Translations under genes and position numbers: made by a program | Source: Eledone cirrhosa | Lineage: Eukaryota | Direction of reading: 5' to 3' | DNA length: 35,786 nucleotides | Assembly (NCBI GenBank): GCA_964016885.1 | Contig: CAXHJY010000550.1 | Coordinates: 1-35,786, forward strand | Notes under the pieces: generated by a model | What the model saw: the letters and a program-made list of their open reading frames with translations, nothing else | Told to the model about the DNA's origin: nothing | Databases searched by the model: none | Part shown: positions 23,857 to 35,786 of the stretch, in pieces | Layout: every line of letters starts with the position of its first letter | Numbering within the stretch: the first letter of the stretch is position 1

Positions 23857-24590
23857 TGTCATGGACCCTGGACTCCTAGTGGAATTGTGGTGGCACTGCC
23901 ATGACATTCTCCTGGGTATTAAAACTTAGTGTAGTGGAGCCCATCCATCTCCAAGTCTGAACACAGCCAACTTTCAGAGAGAGGGAGAGTGAGTTCAAGC
24001 CCATCGGGCCTCTTTAGCCTCAGTACCCCCATCCCAGTAACTTACAGATAGCATTCGCCGATTACGCTATACTAACTATTCATAGCAGCTGTATTAGACC
24101 CCAGGGATGTGGTATTAATCTTTTTCTAAATTTTCAATAATTCTCCACTAGCAACTCTTTCTATAGCTTTGGCCGAAATAGCTGCACCAACTAAATATAG
24201 CAGCTATGTTAGACTCCTTAGTTTTTGTTTTATTTCAATTCTTACATTCTGATACATCTTTCTCTCATTTTTTATTATATTCTTTTTTAGTATATTTTTT
24301 CTTTGTCCCCTAATAGCATTTGATTTACTATTTCTATAACGTCCCTCCTCCACTTTCTAAAGAAACCTTTTTTCGCTAACCTCCTCTAGCCAACTTTCAT
24401 ACATATTCCTTAGAATTTGCCGTGGAGATCTCACCTTCTACGCTTGACCGGCTCTACCCACTCCCCTATCGTTCTACAGGCAAGTTAGCCATCCCTACTC
24501 CGCACTCACTGCCATGATAAGCTTTTTCTGTGTCTGCTACTAATTTTGACCAATCCTCTTGACAACAACAATCTTCCCATATAAGGAAGT

Positions 24591-24689
24591 ACCCCTTGAA
24601 AAGTTCGGCTATTTATTTACCAGACTGAAAAAACTCTTACTTTAGTCCAAAAATAGCCGTCGAAACGGCTTGAGCTCTGCCGTTGGGGT
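24591..24689 (+). ncRNA. Type I hammerhead ribozyme with U3-A8 variant core
   Basis: ACCCC-TTGAAAA-GTTCGGCTATTT...AAATAGCCGTC-GAAA-CGGC-TTGAGCTCT-GCCG-TT-GGGGT. All three helices form; the element tail runs to 24783, then (TA)n. Confidence 0.75.
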
Positions 24690-24831
24690 CATACTTTCTC
24701 CTATTATCCACTCTACTACCCTAAGTATTGAGTACTCTGGTGCGTTATGGTCCATCTGGTTCCTTACCACAACTCCTTCGTTATATATATATAAATAGTA
24801 ATAATAATAAATTTGAAGACTAAAATCCAAA

Positions 24832-24884
24832 GAGTTTCAGAAGATCCCGTTAGGGGTGAAAGCAGCGATTCTTTGCTTAAACTT
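24832..24884 (+). ncRNA. Degenerate type I hammerhead ribozyme
   Basis: GAGTTT-CAGAAGA-TCCC-GTTA-GGGGT-GAAA-GCA..TGC-TT-AAACTT. Core U4>A. Confidence 0.6.
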
Positions 24885-24894
24885 TAATCTGTTA

Positions 24895-24938
<44 letters not shown>

Positions 24939-25139
24939 TATGTATACGTACATACATATATGTATACAGACGTACAATAGTATGTATATATATACATACA
25001 TGTGCACATATATAAATGTACGTACGGATTTACCGAACATTTATTATAATGCTTGGTTTGTTTGTAAACAAACAACCCGAATTAAGCCGAACAGTGTTTA
25101 GCAACCATCGTTCCCCTTTTGTTCAACACTGACAAAGGA

Positions 25140-25182
25140 ACGATGTACTAGTTTCAAGCTTATTAGCTATCGTCAGCATCGT
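25140..25182 (-). ncRNA. Minimal type I hammerhead ribozyme, unit A
   Basis: ACGATG-CTGACGA-T-AGCT-AATA-AGCT-T-GAAA-CTA-GTA-CATCGT. Confidence 0.88.
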
Positions 25183-25571
25183 ATACCTTCCTGCCAGATG
25201 ATTGAAAGTCTGAAAGTATATACTTTCCTTATGCATATTAATGACTGAGCAGCCTAATTTGCATATCGAGTGAGTTAATCGACCGGGCGCACCGAAAATG
25301 ATAAATGGGAAAAATTAAACGAAATTTCATTTCTCACTCTTAGTACGGCTGTTACTTAAATATAAGTATGTATACGTACATACATATATGTATACAGACG
25401 TACAGTAGTATGTATATATATACATACATGCATGCACACATATACATATGTACGTACGGATTTACCGAACATTTATTATAATGCTCGGTTTGTTTGTAAA
25501 CAAACATCCCGAATTAAGCCGTACAGTGTTTAGCAACCACCGTTGTCCTTTTGTTCAACACTGACAAAGGA

Positions 25572-25615
25572 ACGATGTACTAGTTTCTCAGCTTATTAGC
25601 TATCGTCAGCACCGT
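25572..25615 (-). ncRNA. Minimal type I hammerhead ribozyme, unit B
   Basis: ACGGTG-CTGACGA-T-AGCT-AATA-AGCT-GA-GAAA-CTA-GTA-CATCGT; 1 nt longer before GAAA. Confidence 0.82.
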
Positions 25616-25980
25616 ATACCTTCCTGCCAGATGATTGAACGTCTGAAAGTATATACTTTCCTTATGCATATTAACGGCTGAGCAGCTTAATTTGCATATC
25701 GAGTGAGTTAATCGGCCGGGCGCACCGAAAACGATAAATGGAAAAAATGAAACGAAATTTCATTTCTCACTCTTAGTACGGCTTTTAATTAAATATAAGT
25801 ATGTATACGTACATACATATATGTATACATATATGAAATTTCGTTTCATTTTTTCCATTTATCGTTTTCAGTACGCCCGGCCGATTAACTCACTCGATAT
25901 GCAAATTAGGCTGCTCAGCCGTTAATATGCATAAGGAAAGTATATACTTTCAGACGTTCAATCATCTGGCAGGAAGGTAT

Positions 25981-26023
25981 ACGGTGCTGACGATAGCTAA
26001 TAAGCTTGAAACTAGTACATCGT
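25981..26023 (+). ncRNA. Minimal type I hammerhead ribozyme, inverted unit
   Basis: ACGGTG-CTGACGA-T-AGCT-AATA-AGCT-T-GAAA-CTA-GTA-CATCGT; predicted cleavage after 26017. Confidence 0.88.
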
Positions 26024-26282
26024 TCCTTTGTCAGTGTTGAACAAAAGGACAACGATGGTTGCTAAACACTGTACGGCTTAATTCGGGTTCTTTGTTTACA
26101 AACAAACCGAGCATTATAATAAATGTACGCTAAATCCGTACGTACATATATATATGTGTGCATGTATGTATATATATACATACTACTGTACGTCTGTATA
26201 CATATATGTATGTACGTATACATACTTATATTTAAGTAACAACCGTACTAAGAGTGAGAAATGAAATTTCGTTTCATTTTTT

Positions 26283-26325
<43 letters not shown>

Positions 26326-26820
26326 TAGGCGAGTTTTTGTGTGTATGCATGTGTATGTGTGTGTATATATATATACACAAGATATGCACCTTCAGACATA
26401 CACACACTAACACACTCACATATACATACATGCATATGTATATAAAACACACACACGTGTGTGTGAAAAGATATCGTATTTTACAAAAACAATACAAAAA
26501 ATTGGAAACATATGTGGAGAAGTTTATATATATATATGTATTTATTTATATATGCAGAGAGAGAGAGAGAGAGATGTAAAATCCCGACCGTGGCGTCAAG
26601 AAATTAACAAACCAACGTTTGTTTTATCTTGGACTGTTTCAGATTCGCATCTGAAAAGGGATAACAGCCCTGATATATCAAGCCAAAATACTCTGGGGGA
26701 AAGATTACTTAACTTTATTTACCATCATTTGCCTTTCGTATTTTTCTACCGCATTGTACCGGCGTTCAAATAACTTATAGGTCATTTACAGCATATTTCA
26801 CAATTATGATTGTGTTAACT

Positions 26821-31984: not shown

Positions 31985-32475
31985 AAATACAGTTTATTAG
32001 AAACAGAAAAAAAGAAAATTTAGATTGGAAAGAAAGAATGGAATTTGAAATAGGAAAATATAAAGAAAGAAAAGAAAAAAAAGGAAAAGAGTGGGAATGG
32101 CAAAGACTCTAGTGTCACATAAGAATGTGGAAAGTGAGGGGGAGGATGATTGGGCTCTGGACCTATGGTGGGGAGGCAAAGGGGCTGCGCCTCACGGACA
32201 AGATCGCAAAAGCATTACCGTGGAGAATGGTCAATGACACCCGCTGCAACAGCCACCCAACCTCGCGGGGCTCATCTTCAGACGGACCACCGACGTTCTG
32301 AACTTGCTGAGGAGCTCGACTGTATGGGGTCCAAGTACGCCTGAGGTCTCGACAGCAACCGGTGAAAAGAGGAAGTGACCGGAAACTCCCTTGTATTTGT
32401 TTATCTTCCTTTCTTCTGCAAGGCGAATCGCGATATCGGTGTTTGAGGCCGAAGTGCCTAAGTTGGAGGATACTG
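31985..32475 (-). mobile_element. CRE-clade non-LTR retrotransposon 3' fragment
   Basis: Minus strand: [30 protein letters not shown] / [25 protein letters not shown], stop at 32163-65. A pyrimidine-rich 3' UTR and AATAAA (31993-98) follow. Matches the AE..K..KY..F.P.AVET.G..QR.S.AIQRGNA pattern. Confidence 0.8.
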
Positions 32476-34260
<1,785 letters not shown>

Positions 34261-35786
34261 ATAACTTTGAATAACTTTGAAATGTTTTGGCCAGTATTGG
34301 CCCAGGCCATGTCTAACTTAATAGCACCACCTGGCGAAGTCTTTCAATTCAGGATTTGGGCACCATGGCCCATTCGAGAAGAGAATTACTGTTTGCGGAG
34401 ACATATCCGGGTGTGGGTGGTTTGTCCGGGATTACTTGGAGGAATTTGTCCAAAGACTTCTTGAATTTTGTGTGGTCAGTTTCTGTTTTGACGTGTCCTG
34501 GAGTGATGTTGAAGAGAGCAGGGCCGATTGAGGTGAAATAATTGTGCCGTATTGTTGTTATGAGTTGCGATTTAGATTTTTGAATGGGACGGATAGCACG
34601 GGGCCCAAGCCTTGGGTGTATCTTGAAGGCGATGCCAACATCATTTGGGCAGTGATGATGGAACATTTTCCACATCATGCAGATAATATAACGCTCACGG
34701 CGACGTTGGAGTGAGTAAAGTTTCAGGTTTTCCAATCGACCCCAGTAGTCAAGGTCTGACATATCGACCCCAGTAGTCAAGGTCTGACATGCCATCTATC
34801 TTTTTCGTGATTGCCCTTTGAGGAGCTTCAAGTTTCATGATACTTTGTTTCGTGTGGGGAGACCACAGTGGACAACAGTATTCAAGGTGTGGTCGGGCGA
34901 AAGTAGAGAAGAGAAGGATAATGGTGCGGGAATCTCTCGACTGGAAGGTTCTGAGGATCCAGGAACACATTCTGCGGGCCATGTCAACTTTGCTGCTTAT
35001 ATGCGTGGTCCAGCTTATGTTGCTGTCCACGGTTACTCCCAAGTCTCTGATGTTGTTAGATGCCACGAGAGTTTCCCCGGAGGGAAGGGAGTACGGGAGT
35101 TTCAGAGCATCCTCTTTTCCAAAGTGGATCAGTTCGAATTTGTCTTCGTTCAGTAACATGTTGTTCTTTTCTGCCCATTGGGTAACAGCCAGTAGGTCTG
35201 ACTGAAGGCTTATCCGGTCATCCACGCCATTGATGACCTTTTGGAGCTTGGAATCATCAGCGAAAATTTTAATGTTGCTGTGTTTGATGATGTCAGTGAT
35301 GTCATTAATATAGATGATGAAGAGAAGTGGGCCCAACACAGTGCCTTGTGGGACTCCACTACTGACTTTGGCTGGGCTTGATTTGACTCCCTCAACTACA
35401 ACATGTTGGGTTCTGTTTGACAGGAAGCTCTTGATCCACTGCAGCAGCTTTCCAGTGACACCAATATTGGACAGCTTTCTCAGTAGAATGTTATGATCAA
35501 CCCTGTCAAAGGCCTTGCTGAAATCAAGGTAGATAACATCAGTGTTGGAACCCTCTCCCAAGGCTCTCAAAATGTCATCAAAGTGATGCAGTAGTTGCGT
35601 CAGGCAATCCCTTCCATTACGGAATCCATGCTGGTTGGAGTTTAGCATATTGTTACTCTCAAGGAAGTGGGTCATTCGCGATCTCACCACTCGCTCAAAT
35701 ACCTTAATGATATGAGAGGTGAGTGAGATTGGACGGTAATTCACGGCAAGGGATTTGTTTCCCTTTTTGAAAACTGGGACAACAGA
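34261..35786 (-). mobile_element. CR1/L2-group LINE, 3' portion (continues beyond the window)
   Basis: RT ORF plus a short 3' UTR with a GGCCA-ATAC-TGGCC hairpin (34289-302) and a terminal 10-bp tandem repeat (ATAACTTTGA twice, 34261-80). Confidence 0.93.
34349..35786 (-). pseudogene. LINE ORF2 reverse transcriptase, frameshifted by a 28-bp duplication
   Basis: NYRPISLTS, QHGFR, YLDFSKAFD, SGVPQGTVLGPLLF, FADD, RPHLEYC..WSP. ORFs 34749-35744 and 34349-34795 join if one copy of the duplication at 34735-34790 is removed. Confidence 0.93.

Follow-up and report, generated by a model that had tools for sequence, protein, structure and literature searches.

Animal retrozymes were defined in PMC7229834, which shows circular RNAs for these repeats and names Penelope-like elements (PLEs) as their likely mobilizers. 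In Xenopus, retrozymes have been linked to the pseudo-LTRs (pLTRs), with dimers cleaved in vitro in one case of nine and uncleaved in eight of nine (10.64898/2026.07.22.740005). In the available text of this preprint, the words “promoter” and “tail” are absent. Newt satellite 2 carries an snRNA-type Pol II promoter and the schistosome Sm-alpha repeat a Pol III promoter (as cited in PMC2220036), and the two thus provide a precedent for a promoter within a hammerhead repeat.

Descriptions of PLE insertions include truncation and partial tandem copies, a 5′ copy in inverted orientation, a tail that is often present at one end only, and a bias toward microsatellites (PMC8557442). A PLE protein is reported to extend both target strands and to initiate at two positions within the RNA, which bound the tail, and insertion in vitro is independent of cleavage (PMC11167929). 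The repeat family described here touches two questions concerning animal retrozymes: the source of their transcription and the enzyme that mobilizes them, for which PLEs are a candidate.

Organization of the Repeat Array

The window is a whole contig of 35,786 bp, rich in microsatellites, from a 3.0-Gb animal assembly. A tandem repeat at 24932-25829 has a period of 432-433, 2.1 copies and 94% matches. It is followed by an inverted copy at 25834-26286, and the three units are pairwise 94.5-94.7% alike. The first-pass annotation had described tandem units of about 430 bp plus an inverted unit, each with one hammerhead; the tandem period, the pairwise alignment and the motif in every unit confirm this.

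Units A, B and C together make up one insertion of the PLE type, both ends of which are fixed. Its long arm lies on the minus strand and consists of unit A (24936-25363), the 3′-most monomer, unit B (25364-25796) and a third, 5′-truncated monomer (25797-25829) adjacent to the inversion junction. This arm terminates at the first fixed end, site 1. The inverted arm, unit C (25834-26286, plus strand), passes site 1 at 26227 and ends at the second, site 2. The “tail” between both fixed ends (26228-26285, plus strand) is predicted to fold as a hairpin with a T6 run in its 3′ strand. A (TA)n tract adjoins each end, at 24900-24935 for site 1 and at 26286-26327 for site 2.

From cut to cut the monomer measures 432 nt with 36% GC, and monomers of the family range from 428 to 433 bp. 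The longest ATG-initiated open reading frame (ORF) of a tripled monomer encodes 51 amino acids in the sense direction and 38 in the antisense direction, which bears out the earlier view that the unit lacks coding potential. The reverse transcriptase (RT) plus GIY-YIG ORF of an autonomous PLE is absent from the unit.

Other repeats are present nearby. A second hammerhead-like repeat (24822-24899, plus strand) adjoins the (TA)n tract of site 1 and faces unit A. Its core reads CAGAAGA, with an A at position 4; the same core was found in eight of eight other loci matching the pattern, and the variant is therefore family-wide. A third repeat (24590-24780, plus strand) can be drawn as a hammerhead whose core is of the U3-A8 type and whose stem II is long. 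It matches 36 of the examined loci in part, with the full hammerhead motif seen in the window only. Two reading frames on the minus strand, at 32163-32460 and 34349-35786, resemble the C-terminal ends of two LINE-type elements; the first is followed by a 1.8-kb (TA)n tract. A 148-amino acid piece of these frames gave no Pfam match.

The Hammerhead Ribozyme

Every unit contains CUGACGA and GAAA, a 6-bp stem I, a 4-bp stem II, the palindrome ACUAGU and a GUA site, as had been noted before. Stem III consists of two pairs inside the palindrome. The type I core, CUGANGA / GAAA / UH with three stems, is thus present, and by its anatomy the repeat is very probably a retrozyme. The ribozyme is on the minus strand in units A (25140-25182) and B (25572-25615) and on the plus strand in unit C (25981-26023). 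Cleavage is predicted after 25146, 25578 and 26017, respectively; the first two positions, 432 nt apart, agree with those proposed at first pass.

A U·U mismatch lies between stem II and the core in units A and C. Unit B has a variant stem II base, with GA replacing the 3′ U, and a strict descriptor consequently matches A and C only. The G10.1-C11.1 pair is absent from the family, being replaced by U·U here and by A·A in two sister families, and is G-C in a 469-bp family. With U·U in this basal position of stem II, cleavage may be slower. The predicted folding energy of the active dimer is -20.2 kcal/mol vs. -17.0 kcal/mol for two monomers.

It has been noted that metazoan hammerheads occur in canonical and minimal forms, the minimal ones showing low activity (PMC4209133). 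The first-pass annotation used the term “minimal”, which proved loose, as the stems of 6 and 4 bp, the extended stem I and the short palindromic stem III fit the canonical metazoan type I form of that source. The Rfam comparison that it suggested gave no hammerhead match among 150 of the 224 matches listed for the whole window, nor in a search of 25090-25330 at E 10. The matches obtained were microsatellite-driven miRNA plus one chance snoRNA.

Comparison between related families indicates that the ribozyme is under selection, as these families keep the core and alter stems I and II and the palindrome in a compensatory manner. A sister family was discovered beside a PLE, and 30 of its loci were compared. 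Its consensus is 72% alike and has the same two ends. All 11 core positions are identical between the two, while two stem I pairs and two stem II pairs have changed on both sides. The loop III of the sister family has AU in place of UA, which preserves the palindrome. Across 31 distinct sequences, 94.6% of cells are paired and 7 of 12 pairs show both-side changes, with slid controls at or below 42%; the shuffle control overstates this covariation because it rests mainly on two lineages. Compared with unit C, the 469-bp family is 62% alike and a fourth family 56%. Stem I can be extended beyond an internal loop in all four families.

Within the family, core conservation is 0.977 vs. 0.961 overall. 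Such a near-even decay of the core and the rest is expected for dead copies, and the selection signal lies between families and not within one. Preferential conservation of the core across copies, which had been put forward as a refutation test, is therefore a weak one because inserted copies decay almost evenly. The preference found was slight within the family, with the core positions fully kept between families.

Copy Number and Related Families

Exact matches to the 31-nt hammerhead core number 10,046 in the 3.0-Gb host genome, with none for a reversed-pattern control. A degenerate core pattern gave 23,894 matches vs. 10 in the control. The family is dispersed over many chromosomes in tandem units, which answers the earlier call to establish copy number and tandem arrangement in the source genome. 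The same annotation had spoken of a young family; a mean divergence of 7% between loci makes it only moderately so. No description of the family was found in the literature searched, and an unclassified or Penelope annotation may exist in repeat databases. Four public runs of unrecorded kind contain the family, with very deep, genomic-DNA-like coverage in one and traces in three; no RNA data set was listed among those containing it.

Of 90 fetched loci, 77 were analyzed, with 13 dropped (the window’s own two and 11 overlaps). They comprise 28 top BLAST matches, the first 25 exact-core matches and the first 24 matches of a pattern outside the ribozyme. This choice under-samples short copies.

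There are four related families in all, 48-70% identical, and arrays of 13-33 units exist. One locus of the 469-bp sister family (L201, G000:C1:14043000-14052900) has 15 near-identical units and an inverted arm. Its stem II is closed by G-C, and it offers the most promising material for testing expression and cleavage. In 13 of the 14 units compared, there are 0-4 nt differences per 469. An unrelated 310-bp hammerhead repeat (L202, G000:C1:5544277-5546331) has the same inverted-arm design. Long arrays of the family under study (L210-L213) reach 33 units and contain 2-unit, 5-unit and higher-order blocks duplicated at 0-2%. These block duplications represent later DNA-level growth or assembly effects.

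Insertion Footprint

The ends of the insertions follow a fixed pattern. For 130 arms the 3′ end lies within the locus; it falls at site 1 in 57, at site 2 in 53 and elsewhere in 20. These two sites, about 56 nt apart and flanking the hairpin, therefore account for 110 of the 130. At least four TA repeats follow the arm in 49/57 cases at site 1 and 40/53 at site 2, vs. 3/20 elsewhere. The 5′ ends are scattered over the monomer, with 1 of 131 near the cut where 2.8 would be expected. Target-site duplications are unreadable inside (TA)n, and single arms have mixed 5′ flanks.

There are 37 head-to-head pairs, 25 of which have both ends at a site. In 22 of these 25, site 1 is combined with site 2 (p 8e-5). 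The two-end design recurs in the 15-unit array of the 469-bp family and in one inverted insertion of an autonomous PLE (L103). The features of PLE mobilization are thus present, namely fixed 3′ ends with a tail, 5′ truncation, an inverted 5′ copy and a microsatellite target, and there is considerable confidence that the family was mobilized by a PLE.

The lengths of the arms bear on the template. Of the site-ended arms, 57/108 are longer than one monomer and 87/108 pass the nearest cut site, and 1/108 starts at the predicted transcription start. The cut site is crossed intact by 105 of 133 arms. As more than half of the arms exceed one monomer, the template is a circle or an uncut multimer. 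A cut linear monomer was rejected as template by the arm lengths beyond the cut site and one monomer, and a transcript running from the start to the T6 run was likewise rejected by arm lengths. Rare variants are shared 15 times in 54 pairs within insertions vs. 181 times in 5,724 pairs between loci, and the units of one insertion look identical at the time of insertion. The DNA is compatible with either a circle or a homogeneous linear multimer, and the chances of a circular template are judged to be about even.

Penelope-Like Elements of the Host

The host carries many RT plus GIY-YIG PLEs that end in (TA)n and contain small hammerheads. They were sampled by a GIY-YIG scan in which 150 of 10,595 candidates were scored and 50 loci examined; a further 30 loci brought the sample to 80 loci in eight families. 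Clade labels such as Neptune follow the CxxC linker as given in PMC8557442 and are not based on a tree. None of the 80 loci shares DNA with the unit, separate insertions of the unit aside. In the reverse direction, three PLE protein queries gave no tblastn match in the 90 family loci, the 30 sister loci or the window. A 21-nt match in two loci falls within the RT ORF and was dismissed as a chance hit.

The 3′ regions of several autonomous PLE families (L061, L091, L107, L108 and L110) contain U3-A8 hammerhead variants and ACCGGT palindromes. One PLE hammerhead variant has GCAA where GAAA is expected.

A Promoter-Like Element

No invariant run shared by the four families is longer than TATGCAAAT, a 9-nt sequence (permutation p 0.004) that was first taken to be the snRNA octamer. 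It forms part of a 13-nt word common to the four families, with a TATA-like box downstream. The word is also found upstream of host genes. It is located at -77 to -79 in 4 of 19 host U6 matches (three distinct promoters), in the best of nine U6atac matches (with one change) and upstream of the only RNase MRP gene; in a fifth U6 match it is displaced to -271. The word-bearing U6, U6atac and RNase MRP promoters each have a TATA box at -30. The word is absent from the upstream regions of host U1, U2 and U5 (0/13), from the only RNase P gene, and from 14/19 U6 and 8/9 U6atac matches; the U6 and U6atac matches without it are probably pseudogenes.

A Pol II snRNA-type promoter, as in the newt, was considered and rejected, the U1, U2 and U5 upstream regions being without the word. 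These host genes (L220, L222, L256 and L278-L287) instead share AATTAAAT near -90 and TCAGT near -57, a pattern that is likely the Pol II snRNA promoter. Neither this pattern nor the U6-type word is present at the RNase P gene.

A scoring matrix was made from five host promoters post hoc, after the word had been seen. With it, the four families score 20.3, 20.5, 16.1 and 16.9 (reached by 0-1 of 2,000 shuffles), within or near the 17-20.5 of host U6, U6atac and MRP. Controls score no higher than 8.5 (10 U1/U2/U5 upstream regions) or 8.0 (seven PLE 3′ regions), and the 310-bp hammerhead repeat scores 5.8. Scores of at least 15 occur in the window in the three units only. The element lies at 25253-25265 in unit A (minus strand, score 20.3), with a TATA-like box near 25216-25223 and a predicted start at 25192. 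In unit B, it is at 25686-25698 (minus strand, one change, score 15.4; predicted start 25625). In unit C, it is at 25898-25910 (plus strand, score 20.3), with a TATA-like box from 25941 and a predicted start at 25971.

In every case the word shares the strand of the ribozyme and precedes the core by 88-101 nt, and an invariant ATATA block follows about 44 nt later. A C|AG at 73-74 nt after the element in all four families would put initiation 10 nt upstream of stem I in the present one. The distance from element to TATA is 43-46 nt in the families vs. 47-49 nt in the host genes (1-6 nt shorter), and families 3 and 4 fail a strict TATA pattern. The word also qualifies as a generic octamer and lies within a predicted hairpin, the 5′ strand of which is invariant while its partner varies.

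T4-T6 runs occur in the unit of every family. They argue against easy read-through by Pol III, since complete termination of human Pol III at T6 is reported (PMC5725217). In humans, type 3 promoters are also able to recruit Pol II (PMC6023835), in which case the terminator problem would vanish. A working internal U6-type promoter is marginally favored on this sequence evidence.

Proposed Mechanism and Alternatives

Taken together, the family is, on balance, probably a non-autonomous retroelement of the animal retrozyme type that is moved in trans by a PLE and has an internal U6-type promoter. Transcription would start within each unit, about 10 nt before the hammerhead. It would be directed by the host U6/MRP-type upstream element and the TATA box of the same unit, and be carried out by Pol III or Pol II. 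Read-through into the next unit would yield two hammerheads that pair through the ACUAGU palindrome. These paired hammerheads would excise a 428-433-nt monomer carrying the promoter sequence, which a host ligase may close. A Penelope-like RT/GIY-YIG protein would then do the copying, which, as the DNA shows, uses a template longer than one monomer, starts at one of the two hairpin-flanking sites, enters (TA)n and stops at random. Priming of both target strands, one per site, would account for the head-to-head insertions seen in the DNA. Since a tandem insertion restores the promoter upstream of a ribozyme, an otherwise external promoter would become heritable. More tentatively, the element may be a SINE-like RNA parasite of PLEs that is not derived from pLTRs. 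Its captured U6-type promoter, of the external kind that is lost in ordinary retrocopies, would be kept through read-through, excision of a promoter-bearing monomer by the hammerhead, circularization and rolling-circle copying. The PLE enzyme doing this would be a dimer and would prime the two target strands at different sites of the RNA.

In a different reading, the family is an ordinary retrozyme or PLE passenger transcribed by read-through from flanking promoters. The word would then be an RNA- or protein-binding feature, its likeness to U6 incidental. The short TATA spacing, the T runs and the position of the word inside a predicted stem are consistent with this, as are the seemingly promoterless retrozymes of PMC7761336 and the 310-bp repeat that has a hammerhead without the word (score 5.8). 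It is nonetheless an unlikely account of a 13-nt match that reaches host-promoter scores in four families, on a fixed strand and 88-101 nt before the core. The invariant ATATA about 44 nt after the word and the invariance of one stem strand beside a variable partner also speak against it. A still less probable origin is that the units are truncated pLTRs of an unsampled autonomous PLE and not an independent short element. The PLE-type ends, the similar small hammerheads of host PLEs (several sharing the U·U position), the match of Xenopus retrozymes to pLTRs (10.64898/2026.07.22.740005) and a PLE sample of 80 loci out of thousands point in this direction. Against this origin, head-to-tail monomers occur without a PLE protein match in the 90 family loci, the 30 sister loci and the window, no DNA is common with the eight PLE families, and arrays reach 13-33 units.

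Uncut linear multimers from tandem sources could also serve as template, with the ribozyme merely trimming a leader or limiting the RNA. This version differs from the preferred mechanism in the monomer-excision step alone, and is a reasonable contender while falling short of even chances. It draws on the 105/133 arms that cross the cut site intact, on the description of unprocessed RNA as the main substrate (PMC11167929) and on the existence of long arrays, some grown by DNA-level block duplication. The scarcity of rare variants shared within an insertion (15 in 54 pairs), from units seemingly identical when inserted, and the 15-unit array with 0-4 differences per 469 nt, easily produced by rolling-circle copying, weigh on the other side, as do the circles shown for coral, mussel and axolotl retrozymes (PMC7229834). 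However, these counterpoints are also compatible with a homogeneous linear source. It is extremely improbable that the repeat is a satellite, or an artefact of assembly, whose likeness to a hammerhead arose by chance. The lack of an Rfam match and the small, microsatellite-rich contig would agree with it, but it is contradicted by the 10,046-vs.-0 core count and the covariation. The many chromosomes, the fixed ends, the compensatory changes and the presence in public runs further oppose it.

Comparison with Known Systems

The first-pass interpretation is supported by anatomy and covariation as to the retrozyme class, the dimer-type hammerhead and the monomer size; the single PLE-type insertion and the promoter-like element had been missed. 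If the promoter works, it would offer a route for an external promoter to survive retrotransposition. Such a signal, if true, would explain both the transcription of these elements and their tandem form. The family offers a mutable 13-nt promoter candidate kept in four lineages and a PLE insertion footprint that can be counted across thousands of copies. In vitro, a PLE is described as using two priming sites and priming two strands, and the pairing of site 1 with site 2 mirrors this in the genome. It also makes more precise the earlier observation of a tail that is frequently confined to one end.

Compared with PLEs and their non-autonomous forms such as MRC1 (PMC8557442, PMC11167929, PMC4209133), the family shares 5′ truncation, partial tandems, an inverted 5′ copy and a one-end tail, as well as microsatellite targets, two-site internal priming and a small type I hammerhead. 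Unlike the PLEs described there, Neptune-type and others, it has no ORF and its tail is about 56 nt vs. 30-40, and it has no 3′ sequence in common with the sampled autonomous families. Like newt satellite 2 and Sm-alpha, it is a hammerhead repeat with its own promoter, here a candidate. In contrast to what is cited for these two, the candidate element is that of host Pol III snRNA-type genes and is absent from U1, U2 and U5.

The closest systems are the coral, mussel and axolotl retrozymes (PMC7229834; 10.64898/2026.07.22.740005), which are described as non-coding, low-GC tandem monomers of 150-450 bp with one type I hammerhead and without LTRs. As with the animal non-LTR retrozymes described, there are thousands of copies and PLEs in the same genome. 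Circles are shown for those retrozymes and are putative here, and in contrast to the Xenopus retrozymes of the preprint, the eight PLE families sampled gave no pLTR homology. Features seen here that do not figure in the available text of the animal retrozyme descriptions are the two fixed sites of RT start, the targeting of (TA)n, the paired inversions and the candidate promoter. The class is already known; the insertion footprint and the promoter candidate are what set this family apart.
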